NCBI GenBank assembly: GCA_963796455.1
Contig: CAWCLO010000001.1
Location: forward strand, 608,001 to 672,000
DNA from: Candidatus Sulfomarinibacteraceae bacterium
GTDB lineage: Bacteria > Acidobacteriota > Thermoanaerobaculia > Thermoanaerobaculales > Sulfomarinibacteraceae
Length of the DNA stretch: 64,000 nucleotides
Reading direction: 5' to 3'
Shown here: one piece after another, positions 1,851 to 54,197 of the stretch
How positions within the stretch are numbered: position 1 is the stretch's first letter
Layout: every line of letters begins with the position of its first letter
Notes under the pieces: generated by a model
The model's input: the letters and a program-made list of their open reading frames with translations, nothing else
Told to the model about the DNA's origin: nothing
The model's database searches: none
Position numbers and translations under genes: made by a program

Positions 1851-2684
1851 ATGAGCTACGCAAAGAGGTTCCGAGTCAAACCCGGCCAAAAAATCGATCT
1901 TGACGGCTTCGAGGCCAATTGGAAACCCGACGGCATGAAGCGGGTGGATGGAGAGGACGAATTCGTCAACCTGACCGAACGCCTCAGCGAACTCCAGCAC
2001 CTGATGTATGCGGAGGACAAACGATCGCTACTCATCGTCCTCCAGGGTCGCGATGCCGCGGGCAAGGACGGCACCATCCGCCACGTCTTTGGACCGATGA
2101 ACCCGCAGGGCTGCAAGGTGACCAGCTTCAAGGTGCCGTCAAAACTCGAATCTTCCCACGACTTTCTCTGGCGCTGCCACATCGCGGCACCGGCGCGGGG
2201 GCAGGTCGGGATCTTCAATCGTTCCCACTATGAGGACGTGCTGGTCGTCCGGGTTCATGATTTGGTGGAGAAATCGGTATGGTCGAAACGATTCGATCAC
2301 ATCAACAATTTTGAAAGACTGCTCAACGACCAGGGGACGACGGTCCTCAAGTTCTATCTCCACATCGATCGTGAAGAGCAACTCGAACGATTCAAGAAAC
2401 GAATCGACAACCCGAGAAAGAACTGGAAGATCAGCGACGCAGATTATTCAGAACGCCCCTTTTGGGATGAATACACTGCGGCCTTCGAGGACGCCCTCAG
2501 CAAATGCAGCACCCGTGAGGCGCCATGGTTCGTGATCCCAGGCAATCGTAAATGGGCCCGCAATCTGGTCATAGCCAACATCGTCGCTGAAACGATGGAG
2601 GGCTTCGGGATGCAGTACCCCGAACCCGAGGTCGACATGGAAGCGATCAAGCGGATGTATCACGAGGCGGAGGACGCAGGCTGA
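1851..2684 (+). CDS. ppk2: Polyphosphate kinase 2 family protein
   Basis: QGRDAAGKDG Walker A, HDFLWR and FNRSHYEDV motifs. Start MSYAK follows a GAGG RBS. Confidence 0.92.
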   Translation: MSYAKRFRVKPGQKIDLDGFEANWKPDGMKRVDGEDEFVNLTERLSELQHLMYAEDKRSLLIVLQGRDAAGKDGTIRHVFGPMNPQGCKVTSFKVPSKLESSHDFLWRCHIAAPARGQVGIFNRSHYEDVLVVRVHDLVEKSVWSKRFDHINNFERLLNDQGTTVLKFYLHIDREEQLERFKKRIDNPRKNWKISDADYSERPFWDEYTAAFEDALSKCSTREAPWFVIPGNRKWARNLVIANIVAETMEGFGMQYPEPEVDMEAIKRMYHEAEDAG

Positions 2685-2853
2685 TTCTCGTTGCAGGATG
2701 CAGGATGCAGGATCACTCGTGTCCAAGACAGAGTCCCAGACAGCAATCAGGGACGGCGACAGCGATCAGCGTCGGCGACAGGGAACAGCTATCAGTGTTC
2801 AGCGTCAGCGAACAGGAGTCAGCGTCACGTTTGACTGGTATGGAGCCCTGAAA

Positions 2854-3207
2854 TCAAGACTTTGGGTTGAGTAAACGCCATGTCATGGCACGGACCTCAT
2901 CGAAGGCCTTCATCGCTTCACGGGCTCCGTTCGCGCTGATTGCGCTGGCGTGGGCGAGGAGCTTCAAGTGGCTGTCAACCTCCTTCGCGGAGGCGTAGGC
3001 GATTCTCCAGTGGTTCGACCGATCTCTTCCGATCCGGCCGTGCCCTTCCGCCAGATTCGCAGGGACCGAACTTGCCGACCGGATCGCCTGATCGGCTATG
3101 GACTTCAGAGGAGCTGGAACCCTCATCACGAGTTTGATCGCGATTCCTGCTGCTTCCAGAGCTTTCGAGAGGGCAACAAGGTTGGTGTTCGTGGCGGCTG
3201 AGGACAT
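2854..3207 (-). CDS. Four-helix bundle protein (23S rRNA IVS-protein / bAvd-like family)
   Basis: 117 aa with DQAIRSASSVPANLAEGHGR...IAYASAKEV, the family signature (Q..RA..S...NIAEG..R). GGAGG RBS precedes the ATG at 3207. Confidence 0.9.
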   Translation of the reverse strand: MSSAATNTNLVALSKALEAAGIAIKLVMRVPAPLKSIADQAIRSASSVPANLAEGHGRIGRDRSNHWRIAYASAKEVDSHLKLLAHASAISANGAREAMKAFDEVRAMTWRLLNPKS

Positions 3208-3345
3208 GGTCACCTCCGGGTCGTTCATGCCCATTCCCACAAGCCGGTGTGGTGGCCGATGTCAAGGATGCCCTGCACCCTGCCTGTCCTTGACATCGGC
3301 CGCCCACCGGCTACCCCTTCCTTGGAACGACCCGGAGGTGGCCAC
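3206..3345. promoter_or_regulatory. Long two-stem inverted repeat covering the RBS and start of the four-helix-bundle gene
   Basis: 3206-3226 pairs with 3325-3345 (19/21). 3254-3268 pairs perfectly with 3287-3301 (15 bp), extended by 3242-3249/3305-3312. Confidence 0.85.
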
Positions 3346-3621
3346 TTCGCCGCCTGTACTCCTGACCGCTGCCGCTGCTCTCCGTCGCTAAACACTGACC
3401 GCTGTCCCTGTTCGCTGTTGCCTGTCGCTGACGCTGGACACTGTTGCTGACGCTGTCCCTGACCGCTGTCCGAGACACCGTTTTGGACAGCGGTGATCCA
3501 GCATCCAGCATCTGGTATCTGGTATCTGGTATCTGGTATCTGCCGAAATCCTCCTTGGCATTCTCGCTCGCCGGACCCATATTCTTCACATCCGCACATT
3601 TCAGCGAAAAGGGGGGCACTC

Positions 3622-4008
3622 ATGCATTGGTGTTACTCATGCCCGCACTGCGACGCCTCGCTCAACCCCGATGAAACGATCGTTCTGATCGGCGAATGCG
3701 GTCCCCACCGGATCCTGATGGGCTTCCACCCCGAACCGGGGAACTACCGCGGCTATCTGCCGCCGGAGTTCCACCTGCAGGAAGGTTCGATGTGGGACTT
3801 TTTCTGTCCGGTTTGTTCTCGGAGCCTGGTCTCCGAGGCCGCCCCCGAGCTCTGTGCCCTCGACCTGGACACTCAAGGCGTCCGCCACCGGCTTTTCTTT
3901 TCCCGCACTGCCGGCGAAAGGGCGACCTTCGTGATCACGGCCGAAGGCATCACGAGCCACGGAGAGCACGCAGAACAACATTCTCTGGAAATGCTGGATC
4001 TTGTATAG
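3622..4008 (+). CDS. Hypothetical protein with two CxxC motifs (possible Zn-binding)
   Basis: CPHC and CPVC; G-rich RBS precedes the ATG at 3622. Confidence 0.7.
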   Translation: MHWCYSCPHCDASLNPDETIVLIGECGPHRILMGFHPEPGNYRGYLPPEFHLQEGSMWDFFCPVCSRSLVSEAAPELCALDLDTQGVRHRLFFSRTAGERATFVITAEGITSHGEHAEQHSLEMLDLV

Positions 4009-4052
4009 AAGGACCAGTCGTTTGCAGAGCGACAGAGCTTGAAGACTTCCGC

Positions 4053-4228
4053 ACTCCCTTTCTCCCATTCTGGAACGGGATCGGGATCGGATAGCGTGGA
4101 CTGACCATCCCCTTTCTCCCTTTCTCCCTTTCTCCCTTTCAGGAACGATATCCGCGACAGCCGTTCGATAGCGATGGCGCGGATACTGAGCCGTGCGCTG
4201 CCCCTCTGCTCCTCCGCCCCTCTGCGCC
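4053..4228. repeat. Composite intergenic repeat (CTCCCTTT, GGGATC, GATAGC, CTCCTCTG-like units)
   Basis: Same modules as at 10600-10830 and 6740-6870, in reverse-complement orientation. Confidence 0.85.
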
Positions 4229-4269
4229 ACCCCTCGTCACCCCGAAGCGCTGCGTGTAGGATAGAACAC

Positions 4270-5268
4270 GTGGACTTCAAGAAACGCCAGGTGATCCTGA
4301 GATCGATCGGGCTCCTCGTCGCGGTGCTTGGCGCTGGGACCCTGGGTTATATGCTCATTGAAGGCCAGGGCATTATGCCCGCCTTCTATATGACCACTAT
4401 AACGGTCACCACCATTGGGTTTCGCGAGGCCTTTCCGCTTTCTCCGGCCGGCCAGGCATTCACGATCGTGCTCGCCTTTGGCGGCGTCGGGGTCATCCTG
4501 ATGATCGCTACCGATTTCGCCCGGGCAATGCTCGACACCGATATCAGCCGCATGATCGGTCTGCGAAAGGATCTGACAATGTTGAAGAAGCTCAGCCGAC
4601 ATATTGTCGTGTGCGGTCACGGCCGCATGGGCAATGCCGTCGTCGAGGTCCTGCGCGAACGGGGCGTTGATTTCGCCGTGGTTGAACTCGACGCCGAGCG
4701 TTGCCGGGAACTCGAAGAACACCATATTCCGGTGGTCCGTGGGGACGCGACCAAGGAAGATGTGCTCGAAGCCGCTGGAGTCGCCAGAGCCAATACTCTG
4801 ATCGCCTGCCTCGCCGACGACGCCAACAACGTGTATTCGATTCTGCTCGCCCGACAGCTCAAACCCGGGATCACGGTCATCGCGCGAGCGGTCGAGGACG
4901 GCGCCGAAGAACGGCTCAAACTCGCGGGCGCCGATCGGGTGCTCAATCCTTACCGGGTCGGCGGAATCAGGCTCGCCATCACGGCCCTCAAACCAACCGT
5001 CGCCGACTTCGTCGAGGCCTCCCTCTTCGGGTCATCGATGGAGCTCGAACTGGCCGAGGTGGTGGTTCACCCTTCCAGCGATCTTGCCGGCAAAACCCTT
5101 GCCGGAGCTGAAGTCCGGCAGCGTTTCGGCATCATCGTCGTCGCTCTCAAACGAGGCGACAAAAGCACCTTCAACCCGGAGGCTCACGAGGTGATCGAGG
5201 CCGGTGATGTTCTGGTCGCGTTGGGGCCGATTCACGCTCTCGAAAGAATCGAGCAGGCAACGCAATAG
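4270..5268 (+). CDS. Potassium channel protein with TrkA-N/TrkA-C (RCK) domains
   Basis: Two TMs, pore segment TVTTIGFRE, VCGHGRMG Rossmann motif, C-terminal RCK-C. Confidence 0.9.
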   Translation: MDFKKRQVILRSIGLLVAVLGAGTLGYMLIEGQGIMPAFYMTTITVTTIGFREAFPLSPAGQAFTIVLAFGGVGVILMIATDFARAMLDTDISRMIGLRKDLTMLKKLSRHIVVCGHGRMGNAVVEVLRERGVDFAVVELDAERCRELEEHHIPVVRGDATKEDVLEAAGVARANTLIACLADDANNVYSILLARQLKPGITVIARAVEDGAEERLKLAGADRVLNPYRVGGIRLAITALKPTVADFVEASLFGSSMELELAEVVVHPSSDLAGKTLAGAEVRQRFGIIVVALKRGDKSTFNPEAHEVIEAGDVLVALGPIHALERIEQATQ

Positions 5269-5274
5269 GACGAG

Positions 5275-5390
5275 AGGCTATGTGGCTATGGCCGGCTGCT
5301 TCGCAGCCTGGCTGTGAGGCTTATGATTGTTTTTTCTAGGCGCGACCACACAGCCTCATAGCCCCATAGCCTTATTGCCTTATGGCATAG
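5275..5390. repeat. Inverted heptamer arrays (GGCTATG-like ... CATAGCC-like)
   Basis: Degenerate arrays between convergent genes. Confidence 0.8.
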
Positions 5391-5448
5391 AGATCAGCGT
5401 GTCTCGCGGGGGAACCCTGGTGCGACATCGCCGTTGAAGCCAGCGATC

Positions 5449-6669
5449 CTAAACCGAGGCGGCCGCCACCTGTGACAGTCTCCCCGGATAGGCCGCAACG
5501 GCGGCATCGAGAATCTTCATGGCTCGGCCCAGGGTGTTGGAGTCATACATGAAGGCGATCCGAACTTCGTCGATGCCGAGTCCTTCAGTCACATAAAAAC
5601 CCTCGCCAGGCGCCAGACACACCGTTTCCCCTTCGAGCGAGAAATTGCGCAGCAGATAGACGGCAAAATCTTCGCAGCTGTCAATCGGCAACCGCGCCAT
5701 CGAATAGAAGGACCCCTCCGTGCGGTGAGGACTCACGCCTTCAATGGCCCCAAGGCCCTTATAGACCGCATCGCGACGACGCTGGTACTCACCACAAAGC
5801 TCTTCGGAATAGGCGCGGCCGTTTTTTAACATCGGCACCACCATCAGCTGCTCCGCCGTCGGCACCGAGAGCCGTGCCTGACAAAAACGAAGGGTTACGT
5901 CGAGGATCTCGCGGTTGTGGGTTGCCAGGCAACCGATACGCACGCCACAGGCGTTGAACCGTTTGGACACGCTGTCAACGACGATGATTTGCTGCGCCAG
6001 TTCCTCAAATTGTGTGAAGCTGCGCACGTCGCCGCCATCAAAGACGAATTCCCGGTAGACCTCATCACAGATCACAAAGAGATCATTTTCCAACGCGACC
6101 TGCGCCACCGCCTCGAGTTCCTCCGCGGTATAGACCGTCCCGGTGGGGTTCGAAGGGTTACACAAAAGGATGGCCTTGGTCCTCGGCGTGACGCTGGCGC
6201 GCAGTCGGTCGATGGAATGAAAGTGATAGCCTTCCTCCACCCGCAACGTGATCGGGACCATCGAGACATCGGCCTGGGCGGCAAAGCTCAGATAATTCGT
6301 GTAGCACGGCTCGAAAACCAGGACCTCGCCGCCACCACCTGCCACCACCGAGAGGACAAAGGTGATCGCCTCGCTGGCGCCCGCCGTGACCAGGATTTCG
6401 TCCGGTGCATAGGCGATGTCCCAGCTCTCAAAAAACTCGCTCCACCCCTCGCGGGCTTCCAGGAGTCCATCGCTCGGTGCATAGGCAAGCGTTGCCAGGG
6501 AGAGCCCATGGAGTTCGGCAATCATCTCGGGAGGCGTCGGCATATCGGGCTGACCGATATTGAGATAGATGACCTTCGTACCGCGGGCTTCGGCCTGGAG
6601 CGCGTGCGGCGCCAGTTTTCGGATCGGTGAAGCCTGCAATTTGGAACTCTTGGCTGAAAGCTTGGGCAT
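5449..6669 (-). CDS. PLP-dependent aminotransferase class I/II (aspartate aminotransferase-like)
   Basis: LNIGQPD, NPSNPTG, DEVY and DSVSKRFNACGVRIG motifs. GGGAGG RBS precedes the ATG at 6669. Confidence 0.92.
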   Translation of the reverse strand: MPKLSAKSSKLQASPIRKLAPHALQAEARGTKVIYLNIGQPDMPTPPEMIAELHGLSLATLAYAPSDGLLEAREGWSEFFESWDIAYAPDEILVTAGASEAITFVLSVVAGGGGEVLVFEPCYTNYLSFAAQADVSMVPITLRVEEGYHFHSIDRLRASVTPRTKAILLCNPSNPTGTVYTAEELEAVAQVALENDLFVICDEVYREFVFDGGDVRSFTQFEELAQQIIVVDSVSKRFNACGVRIGCLATHNREILDVTLRFCQARLSVPTAEQLMVVPMLKNGRAYSEELCGEYQRRRDAVYKGLGAIEGVSPHRTEGSFYSMARLPIDSCEDFAVYLLRNFSLEGETVCLAPGEGFYVTEGLGIDEVRIAFMYDSNTLGRAMKILDAAVAAYPGRLSQVAAASV

Positions 6670-6872
6670 GGATACCTCCCGGTCGGCACCGCGGTTCCCC
6701 GGATTGTAGCGTATCGGATCAGCCACCTACCCGCCCGTACCCGTATCGGGAAAGGGGGAAAGGGCGCAGGGGAGAAAGGGAGAACGCCCGCAACACGATA
6801 CTCGATGTTGGATGCTCGAACCGCCACATGGCAGAGGGGAAGAGGGGCGGAGGAGCAGAGGGGCTCGAATCG

Positions 6873-7305
6873 AGATACGAGATGCTGGATACTGGATCAC
6901 TCTTGTCCAGGTGGGAGTTTCGGACAGCGATCAGGGACAGCGACGGGGAACGGCAGAAAGCGTCAGCAAACAGGAGTCAGCGGCAGCGACCAGCGGCCGG
7001 GGCAGCGACAGCGCCAGCCAACACCAATCACTCCGTCGGGTTCAACAGCCGCCAGGTCATGGCACGGACCTGATCGAAGGCCCTCATCGCTTCACTGGCT
7101 CCGTTCCGGCTGATCGCCCCGGCGTGGCGGCCGATGTCAAGGATGCCCTGCACCCTGCCTGCCCTTGACATCGGCCGCCCACCGGCTACCCATTTCTGTA
7201 GAACGATCCGGAGGTGGCCACGCCGTCACTGCGCCTGATCGCTGGCCCTGAACACTGATTGCTGCCCCCTGTCCCTGTTCGCTGTCCTCTGTCGCTGCCG
7301 CCGCA
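6873..7305. mobile_element. Internally deleted copy of the four-helix-bundle cassette
   Basis: Left arm, gene 3' end, inner hairpin (GGCCGATGTCAAGG...CCTTGACATCGGCC) and right arm all match 2692-3541. About 300 bp of the gene 5' part and UTR are missing. Confidence 0.75.
7028..7126 (-). pseudogene. C-terminal remnant of four-helix-bundle gene
   Basis: Translates HAGAISRNGASEAMRAFDQVRAMTWRLLNPTE*, versus HASAISANGAREAMKAFDEVRAMTWRLLNPKS* in the intact copy. Confidence 0.9.
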
Positions 7306-7336
7306 ATTCGGGCACCGACGCGGACTCGGGGGAACG

Positions 7337-7427
7337 GCGCCTTTGCGTCTTTGCGTTCTTCGCGGTTTCAGCATGTGCACGCGGGACGCGTGCACCACCA
7401 TGGTGGTGCGGCCGTCTCGGCTGCACT
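7337..7427. repeat. Dispersed ~90-bp repeat with three overlapping palindromes
   Basis: Closely similar copy at ~12775-12865; core GTGCACGCGnGACGCGTGCACCACCATGGTGGTGCnGCCGTCTCGGCTGCAC. Confidence 0.9.
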
Positions 7428-7503
7428 TCCCCTCTGCTCCTCTGCTCTGATGGATCGATAGCGATAGCGATTATTCGCGGTAGCGACCCGGGTACAATGT
7501 CGC

Positions 7504-8922: not shown

Positions 8923-9048
8923 AAGGGCGCACGGGTGAAAGGGAGCCCGTGAGCCCGTCGCGATTCTGATAAGGGCGCCTCGTCCCCCTTTCCCCCTTTC
9001 TCCCTTTCTCCCTTTCTCCCTTTCTCCCTTTCTCCCTTTCTCCCTTTT
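8921..9048. repeat. Octamer arrays AAAGGG.. / (CTCCCTTT)n
   Basis: About 8 CTCCCTTT-like units with a degenerate inverted arm on the left. Confidence 0.9.
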
Positions 9049-22638: not shown

Positions 22639-23051
22639 GGCTTGGGGCTTGGGGCTTGGGCGAAAAGCTATGGGCTATGGGCTATGGGGTTTAAGCAACG
22701 AACTGCAGCCGTTAGCTTTCGTGCCTGTAGCCTATTTCGTGGAGCCGAGCCAAATGCAAAACGCCGGATCGTCAAGGAAAATGGGCGCCGTGTCACCGAC
22801 GGGGCACGGGCACGAGTTGGGATGCTCGGTGGCGACGCGAGACGGAGAAACCGCAGATCACGCAGATGAACGCAGATAACATCGAGCAGGGCTCCTGGTG
22901 GATCGGGGACTCTCGTCGCCACGTTCGCGGGATGTCGTGAGATGGAGTCTGCGAGCGCCGGAGGTGCGAAAGATTCATAGCCCGAGCCTCATGCCCCAAG
23001 CCCTTAGCTTCAGGCCTCAAGCCTCAGGCCTCAGGACTCAGGCCCCAAGTC
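22639..23051. repeat. Composite repeat with inverted heptamer arms
   Basis: (GGCTTGG)3 and (GCTATGG)3 on the left; CATAGCC/CAAGCCT/CAGGCCT units on the right; internal 34-bp CGCAGAT module at 22844-22877. Confidence 0.9.
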
Positions 23052-42704: not shown

Positions 42705-43292
42705 CGGGGAAAAGGGGAAGGGGGGCACGGGAGAAAGGGGGAAAGGGAGAAAGGGGGAAAGGGAGAAAGGGAGAAAGGGGGACCGTCCGCTCGCTCGATA
42801 CTCGATAGTCGATGCTCGATGCTGGATATCGGATTTCGGATTTCGGATTTCGGATTTCGATCCAGGATGGCTGAGGGGCGGAGGAGAAAGGGAACAAACA
42901 GAGAACCACCCGGCACCGATTTCTCCTGCATGGGAATGTCGCCTCCCGATGTCATCCTGAGCGCAGCCCCCACAGGGGCGAAGTCGAAGGATCTATGAGA
43001 TGGACCGTAGAGACTTCCAGCCGCAGATCCTTCGACTTCGCGCCGAAGGCGCTTCGCTCAGGATGACATCTTGAAAGACAGTTTCCGTTTCCGGACCCGG
43101 CCCCGTTCCCGCACGGGGCGGACCGTACCCAGGATTGCGGGGGGGGCCGGCGGACCGCTCCCCATCCTCGCTCTCGCTATTGAACGGCTGCTATGGATTC
43201 CGATCCCGAAAAGGGAAACGAGGATAAGGGACAACCATGCACCCACCTACTCCAGCGGAAGTTCGATCTCCCTTTCTCCCTCTCTCCCTTTC
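42705..43292. repeat. Composite repeat with a central 123-bp REP-like palindrome (42948-43070)
   Basis: GGGAGAAA, GATGCTC and CGGATTT arrays; GATGTCATCCTGAGCG..GCGAAGTCGAAGGATCT / AGATCCTTCGACTTCGC..CGCTCAGGATGACATC. Confidence 0.9.
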
Positions 43293-44399: not shown

Positions 44400-44596
44400 G
44401 TCCCGATTCCGATGAAAGGAGGAAAAGGAGAAAGGGAGAAAGGGAGAAAGGGAGAACCGTACCGGTTGCGTCGTTCGTGATAAGGATCGTGTCTCCTCTG
44501 CTCCTCTGCTCCTCTGCTCCTCTGCTCCTCTGCTCCTCTGCTCCTCTGCTCCTCTGCTCCTCTGCTCCTCTGCTCCTCTGCTCCTCTTCTCCTCTG
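44400..44596. repeat. Octamer arrays (GGGAGAAA)n and (CTCCTCTG)x11+
   Basis: 11 perfect CTCCTCTG units at 44493-44580. Confidence 0.95.
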
Positions 44597-44612
44597 CCCG
44601 AACTGGGGAGAC

Positions 44613-53467: not shown

Positions 53468-54197
53468 GATGTTGGATACCGGATGCCGGATGCTGGAACG
53501 AGCAGCGTTTCGGAGAAACCGCAGATCACGCAGATGAACGCAGATCGACCGTCGCTATCGAACGCTGTCTGGGCTAACGATCTCTCAGCAAGGTATGGGA
53601 AACCGCACTGCCCGATCCCGTTCCCGAATTGCAGCGGCAGCGACAGTGTCCAGCGACAGCGACAGCGTCAGGGAGCGGCGACAGCGTCAGCGGCAGCGAA
53701 CAGCGATCAGTGATCAGCGGCGGCGGCCAGGAGTACAGGCGACGAAGTGGCCACCTCCGGGTCGTTCAACGGAAGAAGTAGCCGGTGGGCTGCCGAGTTG
53801 GGAGAGACCGGTCGGCCCACTGGAGGATCGCCTACGCCTCGGCGAAAGAGGTCGATAGCCACTTGCAGCTTCTCGCCCACGCCGGATCGATCAGTCGAGA
53901 TGGAGCCGGTGAAGCGATGAACGCCTTCGATCAGGTCCGTGCCATGATCTGGCGGCTCTTGAACCCTAATGGGTAAGTGCTATTCGCTGACGCTGACCAC
54001 TTTCGCTGGCGCTGGTTTCTGCCGCTGATAGCTGACTACTGTTCCCTGACGCTGTCCGCTGTCGCCGTCCCTGAACGGCGACCGAGAACCTGTCATGGAT
54101 AAGAGTGTTATCCTGCATCCTGCATCCTGCATCCTGCATCCTGCATCGAGCATCTCGCATCGAGTATCGAGTATCGAGTATCGAGTATCTCGCATCG
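53468..54197. mobile_element. Second internally deleted four-helix-bundle cassette (opposite orientation) within repeat arms
   Basis: CAGCGA-rich arm plus CAGGAGTACAGGCGACGAAGTGGCCACCTCCGGGTCGTTC matches the reverse complement of ~3325-3364. It is joined to the gene's 3' half and ends in (ATCCTGC)n and (ATCGAGT)n. Confidence 0.75.
53794..53976 (+). pseudogene. C-terminal half of four-helix-bundle gene
   Basis: 47/60 aa identical (manual count) to the intact copy; lacks the N-terminal half including the NLAEG motif. Confidence 0.9.

Follow-up and report, generated by a model that had tools for sequence, protein, structure and literature searches.

A transposase-less cassette with IS4-family ends and a four-helix-bundle gene, present in many copies in a Candidatus Sulfomarinibacteraceae genome

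In the genome of a Candidatus Sulfomarinibacteraceae bacterium, a small gene within inverted repeats is flanked by ppk2, with its stop codon at 2684, on one side and by a CxxC gene on the other, which raises the questions of what delimits this element, how it would be moved and why its gene is kept. The window analysed is the whole stretch of 64,000 nucleotides at C1:608001-672000 of this genome (G000; 5 Mb assembly, 90.5 % complete), and positions given without a contig refer to it. The following features could be distinguished in and around the gene-bearing copy:

2705..2713, no strand: left copy of the 9-bp target duplication (ATGCAGGAT), at the end of the host heptamer array, 7/9 identical to the right copy
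2714..2730, plus strand: terminal inverted repeat matching the IRL of IS4-family elements, on the 3' side of the cargo gene
2731..2830, no strand: sub-terminal stretch and low-complexity CAGCG(G/A)-type array, together the 3' arm of the cargo unit
2854..3207, minus strand: four-helix-bundle gene, 117 aa, PF05635/TIGR02436, pI 10.4
3208..3345, minus strand: nested palindromic leader; outer stem 3325-3340 with 3211-3226 over a GGAGGTG ribosome-binding site, inner hairpin 3244-3311
3361..3478, no strand: CAGCG(G/A)-type array, the 5' arm of the cargo unit; in the window copy an IRL-like stretch replaces the usual ~90-nt IRR sub-terminal module
3479..3495, minus strand: terminal inverted repeat matching the IRR of IS4-family elements
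3496..3504, no strand: right copy of the 9-bp target duplication (ATCCAGCAT)
3505..3542, no strand: heptamer array outside the element, its landing site and not part of the mobile unit

The 117-aa protein had been placed in the Avd/IVS-type four-helix-bundle family in an earlier note on this DNA, and it scores above the cut-off values for both PF05635 (55.1 bits; cut-off 33.8) and TIGR02436 (56.6; cut-off 24). The outer ends do not dissolve into heptamer arrays, as that note had it, but stop sharply at 2714 and 3495, with the 9-bp direct repeats located outside. The long imperfect inverted arms it described are present in the sequence (100 identities over 130 aligned columns, and 34 over the first 45) and fold back strongly (z -12.5 for the element against shuffles, with 0/20 shuffles as low), but their long non-repetitive symmetry is peculiar to this copy. 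It is the sole one of 73 bounded elements with IRL-like sequence inside both ends, and because its sub-terminal stretches are alike in this way, its arms look longer than those of the family. Family-wide, what the ends have in common is limited to the 17-bp terminal repeat and the low-complexity CAGCG(G/A)-type array. Co-evolution of the arms within a copy was rejected, as the similarity between the two arms of one copy does not exceed that between arms taken from different copies (mean score 50.1 versus 50.6; permutation p 0.69). No promoter or terminator was found inside the element, a promoter-like TTGGCA-17-CATATT of the CxxC gene occurs just outside it (3555-3583), and Rfam gave no significant match in positions 2600-7500.

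Throughout the genome the 17-bp ends delimit a unit of 782-887 bp (27 bounded full copies) with the 117-aa gene as cargo and no transposase. The 13-nt end motif has 225 matches, against 17-18 in two shuffles, and in copies with 98-99 % core identity the match begins at the first base of this motif (CACT) and is lost outside it. Duplication of the target was assessed in the 73 bounded elements by setting the bases immediately outside the left end against those immediately outside the right end, for lengths of 2-15. Length 9 stands out (0.79 versus 0.52), and an exact 9-mer occurs on both sides of 21/73 elements (permuted mean 2.0, maximum 7; 500 permutations). The flanking 9-mers agree at 7.10/9 positions, against 5.64 and 5.99 for the neighbouring array units (p 8e-5 and 8e-4; 70 unique elements). 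Their agreement at the 19 sites outside arrays averages 6.2/9 positions, against 2.7 when permuted; the duplication is thus not an array effect. The target consensus, AT-C-C-W-G-S-AT, corresponds to one heptamer unit plus AT, which accounts for most copies being located in ATCCAGC-type heptamer arrays. That the arrays are themselves transposition footprints was rejected, as they are abundant in genomes without exact ends. In counts of exact patterns, among genomes that are kin and thus not independent, ATSCWGS arrays number 151 in G015 and 39 in G031 with no exact IS4 end, and AACGTT arrays number 192 in G013 and 126 in G035 with no exact end of the second, ISL3 type described below, whereas G034 has 52 exact IS4 ends but a single triple array.

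The cassette gene had been counted three times in the window. Only one of these three copies contains the gene, the other two being deletion derivatives:

6898..7309, minus strand: copy 2, internally deleted; what remains is a decayed IRL, the arrays, the greater part of the leader and the final ~30 codons
53622..54107, plus strand: copy 3, with a recurrent deletion at a CGGCCGA microhomology (one of nine such loci); IRL at 54107

Related segments are therefore present where the same architecture had been reported (~6873-7305 and, inverted, ~53630-54197), but both are without the gene and a recognisable IRR. About 290 nt (core positions 123-412) are missing from copy 2 and about 257 nt (core 71-327) from copy 3, with the start codon and most of the ORF gone in each case; three terminal ends were found within the window. 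The family is not restricted to these three copies. Its non-repetitive core matches 154 loci in G000, 63 of them full length, while ends and cores together cluster into 199 loci. The 63 full copies, which are 84-99 % identical (median 90 %), bear out the earlier proposal of a spreading, transposase-less family with an Avd/IVS-type four-helix bundle as its only protein cargo; given these copies and the gene-free orthologous gaps described below, neither ground on which the earlier note would have withdrawn this proposal applies. Both ends are kept by 31 of them, one by 24 and neither by eight; 57 retain the 117-aa frame, and five of the six broken copies look like frameshifts.

Gene-less derivatives spread too, and the four-helix protein is thus dispensable in cis for transposition. 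At 37 loci a REP-like hairpin replaces the gene at one shared junction, with one such pair 97.9 % identical. At codon 59, the nine loci that share the deletion at the 7-bp microhomology have the variants also seen in full copies, a pattern suggestive of recurrence or conversion. Further derivatives (L333; G000 C4:128515, C3:188238 and C7:133820) have two same-type ends or inverted interiors, suggesting recombination between oppositely oriented copies. A second MITE family with the same IS4 ends carries a GTCATCCTGAGC-type palindrome in place of the four-helix cargo (G000 C4:114700, C4:24631 and C5:1335). Outside the genomes compared, a plasmid collection gave no match, 16 matches to a 17-nt leader motif in viral contigs included the gene in 0/16, and metagenome scans for the end plus sub-terminal motif returned one match, a gene-less derivative.

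Empty orthologous sites, which the earlier note had proposed to look for, do occur: the gene is absent from the orthologous gap in 19/19 relatives' loci, and ppk2 adjoins the CxxC gene in 11. In these 11 the gap measures 177-520 bp, against 940 in G000, and mostly holds other repeat hairpins; in G034 it is occupied by a gene-less element that has the cassette's ends. A search for an empty allele within the species found none, and the ppk2 junction was without a match in metagenome scans, so that the 9-bp duplication is seen at occupied sites. Both the ppk2-CxxC and CxxC-trkA gaps (L019-L037) include a slot between stop codon and next promoter that holds a different repeat hairpin in almost every congener and looks like a hot spot with turnover. 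In 7/19 relatives' loci (L025-L029, L033, L036), ppk2 is absent between queF and the CxxC gene.

The earlier view that a factor acting in trans is needed is supported, and the IS4-family ends and 9-bp duplication point to an IS4-family DDE transposase as this factor. A genus-wide DDE search recovered a 1411-bp element (L039) in the congener G017, the downstream end of which is identical to the cassette 5' end (17/17 nt). Its transposase matches the NF033592 IS4 model (251 bits; cut-off 115), combines DUF4372 with DDE_Tnp_1 and carries a Y-2-R-3-E-6-K motif. The same ends are found on IS4 elements in L113, L130 and L132. A scan of GTDB genomes for the end gave at least 120 matches; of 80 with flanks, 13 held a related transposase and three a four-helix gene. 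Among the matches listed, seven were complete IS4 elements with both ends, flanked by perfect 9-bp (three) or 8-bp (one) duplications or by none (three, including L039). It is thus highly likely that the cassette is moved by an IS4 transposase in trans. The main gap in this model is the missing enzyme: a cognate IS4 transposase was not found in the G000 assembly or in G006, the two genomes with IS4-ended cassettes, and was found in one of about 25 genus genomes. Despite this, 56/435 pairs of G006 cassette genes are at least 99 % identical. The sole DDE_Tnp_1 gene of G000 was rejected as the source, being without cassette ends, and no Mutator-family transposase was found as a partner.

Of the partners that had been suggested, reverse transcriptase (RT), RAYT and GxxExxY found no support. 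There are no RVT_1 matches in G000 or in the cassette-bearing genomes G003, G004, G005, G010, G015 and G018 (89-97 % complete), RT presence does not track the cassette across the genus, and third-position change rates (A 0.175, C 0.123, G 0.143, T 0.062) give no adenine bias; RT-based mobility was rejected on these grounds. The RAYT-type and GxxExxY genes examined carry their own flanking repeats, which differ from the cassette ends, and none of the five Y1 loci inspected (of six) is flanked by these ends. Three long (~340 aa) Y1/HUH transposase-like frames occur in G000 (C4:1144044 and C4:1147021, L001 and L002; C8:150867, L003), two of them 3 kb apart, with no obvious REP flanks in the two examined. 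Three GxxExxY genes (G000 C1:453963, C1:750134 and C1:748392; L005-L007), one frameshifted, are each bracketed by inverted 8-9-nt arrays, and the 9-nt words of such arrays recur gene-less in the window (e.g. 7341-7368, 22844-22883 and 53512-53545).

The cargo, consisting of repeat arms, palindromic leader and gene, is a unit separate from its shell. Of 52 matches in G006, 30 copies were examined; every one has both IS4 ends, and exact 9-mers flank 14 of them. The arm-leader-gene-arm unit of G008 and G014 is enclosed by GG(C/T)TCATCCGGAA ISL3-type ends, found on both sides in 12/16 and 9/12 loci, respectively. The duplications of this shell are 8 bp in length, of NAACGTTN; the permutation test is significant in G008 (0.86 versus 0.66 permuted) and not in G014, where the targets are nearly alike. 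ISL3-type ends bracket ISL3 transposases in three congeners (L270, L271 and L273), in one case directly beside a cassette. IS1595 was rejected as the source of the second end type, its loci being without a matching pair of ends; ISL3 fits. One AACGTT array at L273 (G017:C613) contains both an ISL3-ended four-helix cassette and, next to it, an intact ISL3 element, a possible capture intermediate. While G034 is rich in exact IS4 ends, the three gene copies examined there have ISL3-type ends. Most copies in G004, G003, G010 and G018 show neither end type; those of G004 have no common sharp boundary, and 2/22 loci in this genome keep one ISL3-type end.

The cargo gene points from IRL to IRR in the ISL3 shell; in the IS4 shell it points from IRR to IRL, against the direction of the lost transposase. 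A gene tree (100 sequences, with 14 of the 63 G000 copies and ten G006 rows sampled), which is unrooted, weakened by recombination and used for clustering only, separates the IS4-ended genes from the others at one branch (100/99); ISL3-ended and end-less genes interleave (12 changes each). Opposite orientation of the cargo in the two shells implies that it was captured at least twice or that one swap took place. Each of the remaining four-helix genes in G000, four in number (C4:1278094, C1:983149, C9:2726 and C10:733004), lies between inverted tandem arrays of its own 6-8-nt word (CTCCTCTG, GGCTAT-type, GGAATTA and ATCGCT), of which there are 23-67 exact arrays per genome, against 0 shuffled. 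Under a strict definition, empty inverted pairs of these words number 0-2 per word, which leaves the idea of such pairs unsupported. Within the window, a gene-less inverted pair of TGAGTTC-type heptamer arrays precedes an EamA gene (369-461), and intergenic octamer arrays are found at 44493-44597 (CTCCTCTG, 13 units), 8986-9047 (CCCTTTCT, eight units) and 42706-42782 (complement of CCCTTTCT, ten units).

The protein is modelled as four helices (pLDDT 94). Its best structural matches are Xanthomonas XCC0516 and Bacteroides BT_0352 (2GSC/2RLD; TM 0.79-0.83), with five chains in each structure, while Avd is more distant (TM 0.76-0.80; 8-12 % identity). By analogy with these structures, a homopentameric ring is inferred for the cassette protein. 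The 140-nt leader before the start codon is a nested palindrome (z -6.5), the outer stem of which pairs over the ribosome-binding site. Among 147 distinct leaders from 15 genomes, which are related and not independent, this stem hardly varies, and compensatory changes occur at 15 pairs. A-C mismatches are commoner than G-U pairs (33 versus 17), and only 30/147 leaders fold better as the sense strand. These patterns speak for a palindrome without singling out structure in the sense RNA; a hairpin in DNA or homogenisation of the two arms would fit equally. By analogy with Avd, the protein would likely bind the cassette's own hairpin or leader. In some copies of the G006 type (L092 and L009), an unrelated palindromic insert replaces the inner hairpin and the outer stem is kept.

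The cassette gene is under purifying selection in ten genomes (dN/dS 0.14 in G000, from 60/63 copies; 0.13-0.24 in nine others). Changes private to one copy comprise 79 non-synonymous and 44 synonymous, and shared changes 42 and 134, respectively (Fisher p 4e-12), which gives a non-synonymous share of 64 % for private changes (neutral 71-75 %) and 24 % for shared ones. Private changes that are near neutral and shared changes that are filtered are expected if copies drift after insertion and those with a working protein tend to be the donors; assembly errors, or ordinary host-level selection against rare harmful variants, could yield the same pattern. The copies are also short-tract mosaics. 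Linkage in G000 falls from r2 0.23 at 1-5 nt to 0.02 beyond 60 nt, decaying within 30-60 nt (0/1000 permutations as steep), and all four combinations occur in 4/10 pairs of multi-site blocks. Similar decay is seen in three other assemblies (G006, G014 and G017), while it is weak in G004 and G008. Gene conversion is very probably the source of these mosaics.

Taken as a whole, a cassette with IS4 ends that is copied in trans, a separate cargo with a leader-binding protein and reshuffling by gene conversion is the probable explanation. Its first two steps are observed: the 17-bp ends define the 782-887 bp unit, recent copies of which are identical end to end and differ outside, and insertion duplicates 9 bp of the AT-C-C-W-G-S-AT target. 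The enzyme would be the IS4 transposase that such ends enclose in a congener and in other phyla, and which may be unassembled in G000, lost after a burst or a transient visitor. Deletions and replacements are then seen to yield the gene-less derivatives, which spread as well, and as they do so the protein cannot be needed in cis for the IS4-type jump. The patchwork of the copies would most likely arise via recombination between dispersed copies. In the weakest step, the basic protein would form an Avd-like ring on the palindrome that hides its own ribosome-binding site, limit its own expression and favour copies with a working gene as donors. Such autoregulation and donor advantage, drawn from the analogy with Avd, are put forward tentatively as something that may well not apply; a donor advantage would explain purifying selection on shared, and hardly on private, changes.

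Several other readings of these data were weighed. The gene may be a passenger of the IS4 shell under selection by the host: the pooled protein would be useful, for example by binding hairpin RNAs at transcript ends, mutant subunits would poison the ring and conversion would spread good alleles. The spread of gene-less shells accords with this, as do private changes slightly below neutral (64 % non-synonymous versus 71-75 %; p 0.004-0.06) and the location of 26/63 copies between convergent genes, against 426/2699 gaps overall as determined with a crude gene caller. However, the cassette protein is matched in 21/30 relatives, with 0-52 matches each (matches, not copy numbers) and none in 3/18 congeners, which is unlike a host function, and one mutant among ~57 intact copies would be nearly invisible to the host, yet shared variants show pN/pS 0.10. 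Selection of this kind is possible and appears unlikely.

More doubtful still is a cargo unit that is itself selfish, with the protein promoting in cis a recombination-like copying of arm, leader, gene and arm into arrays and shells, and the IS ends as a second vehicle. The same cargo occurs in three settings (IS4 ends, ISL3 ends and none), including a clade of 15 end-less G004 copies with no shared sharp boundary (dN/dS 0.17 in that genome), and 4/4 of the other four-helix genes of G000 lie between inverted arrays of their own, amply represented words. One pair of copies shares a 349-nt identical tract but has different ends, and both the short-tract mosaicism beyond G000 and the filtering of shared but not private variants would fit. 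Against this, young copies, where there are any, are bounded by IS ends with target duplications. The end-less copies are the most diverged (dS ~1) and their ends may have eroded; one ISL3-type end is kept at 2/22 G004 loci. The fold is also without a known catalytic site, and Avd is described as lying ~40 A from the RT active site (10.1101/2023.10.23.563531). A broader version, to which a marginally greater though still low probability is attached, is that the arm-palindrome-gene-arm unit founds a class of protein-assisted selfish cassettes, in which each subfamily would recognise its own word and hairpin and drive in cis short-tract copying into arrays and IS4/ISL3 shells, with ORF-bearing rRNA IVSs and the Avd of diversity-generating retroelements (DGRs) as offshoots.

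Artefacts of assembly or strain mixing are very unlikely to account for the mosaicism and for some of the private variation: frameshifts, as in most of the broken copies, are a common long-read error, but the same linkage decay recurs in three other assemblies, ~10 % divergence between copies is enough for unique read mapping and the variation follows codon position. The least credible reading is a retroelement whose hairpin transcript is cut out by RNase III like an rRNA IVS and reinserted by an RT with an Avd-like partner; the fold shared with Avd, the strong fold-back and mosaicism that could reflect template switching speak for it. Against it are the missing RVT_1 genes and adenine bias, the fixed-length duplications and IS-identical ends, which are hallmarks of DDE enzymes, and leader variation that is not wobble-rich on the sense strand; for the shell it is already largely refuted.

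The preferred explanation, an IS4-ended cassette copied in trans, can be compared with known systems. In its sequence features the shell matches an IS4-derived mobile insertion cassette (MIC/MITE), with IS4 ends, a duplication of ~8-10 bp, no transposase and a passenger gene. MICs and MITEs are described as combining IS ends and a passenger gene with no transposase and as activated by a cognate transposase (PMC3129680), and comparable mobile insertion cassettes are reported in PMC6542083. Elements of the IS231 subgroup of the IS4 family carry extra DNA with passenger genes, a modular form that, as that review put it in 2008, had not been seen outside IS231 (PMC2266710). The cassette resembles MIC231 in its lack of a transposase, IS ends, passenger gene and IS4 parentage. 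In contrast to IS231 (CAT, 10-12 bp), its ends, size and duplication fit the IS4Sa row (CA------T, 8-10-bp repeats) of Table 1 of PMC2266710, a fit by signature and not by phylogeny. It differs further from MIC231 in its 63 gene-bearing copies in one chromosome, a passenger antisense to the lost transposase and also found in ISL3 shells, and the lack of a cognate transposase found in the assembly.

With the ORF-bearing 23S rRNA IVSs of Coxiella and Leptospira (S23p, PF05635) the cassette shares the protein family and fold, and a gene inside complementary arms. Such IVSs have been hypothesised to be transposition remnants, or their ORF to have served mobility (PMC4990558). The cassette, however, is intergenic and multicopy and not in rRNA: the single 23S gene (C10:140644-143654, 3011 nt) holds none of the 154 core loci. 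While the Coxiella S23p is described as decaying and probably not made (PMC4990558), the cassette gene is under purifying selection and has a strong ribosome-binding site. Avd, presented as a barrel-shaped pentamer with positive charge, binding a stem-loop in its own RNA (10.1101/2023.10.23.563531), is similar in its four-helix fold and basic character. The low identity to Avd, the lack of RT matches in G000 and the lack of adenine mutagenesis separate the cassette from DGRs. In REP/REPIN-RAYT systems a gene lies between inverted short repeats with many gene-less intergenic copies. The cassette shares these repeats around a gene, gene-less intergenic copies and enrichment between convergent genes, but its ends and 9-bp duplication are of DDE type and the RAYT-type genes of G000 carry other repeats. 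The cassette is thus neither an rRNA intervening sequence nor a DGR. The earlier suggestion of an undescribed system applies in part: the outer shell is of a known kind, while the cargo unit is undescribed, with no description of a PF05635 gene in IS shells found in the literature searched, outside subscription journals, ISfinder and supplements.

PF05635 is a large family, the members of which are not known to have a function outside DGRs. The member described here is free-standing. Its vehicle (IS4 or ISL3 ends) and its target are defined, a conserved palindrome covers its start and each genome offers dozens of natural alleles, which makes the old and unproven idea of rRNA IVS mobility (PMC4990558) a question testable in a laboratory strain with a 0.85-kb cassette and one named transposase. 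The evolutionary puzzle is a passenger that is unneeded for the jump, yet intact in 57/63 copies and present in two unrelated shells. If the protein does not act in cis, the cassettes would be a well-populated but ordinary MIC/MITE family; if it does, they would show selfishness of a new kind in a gene that lacks catalytic activity.
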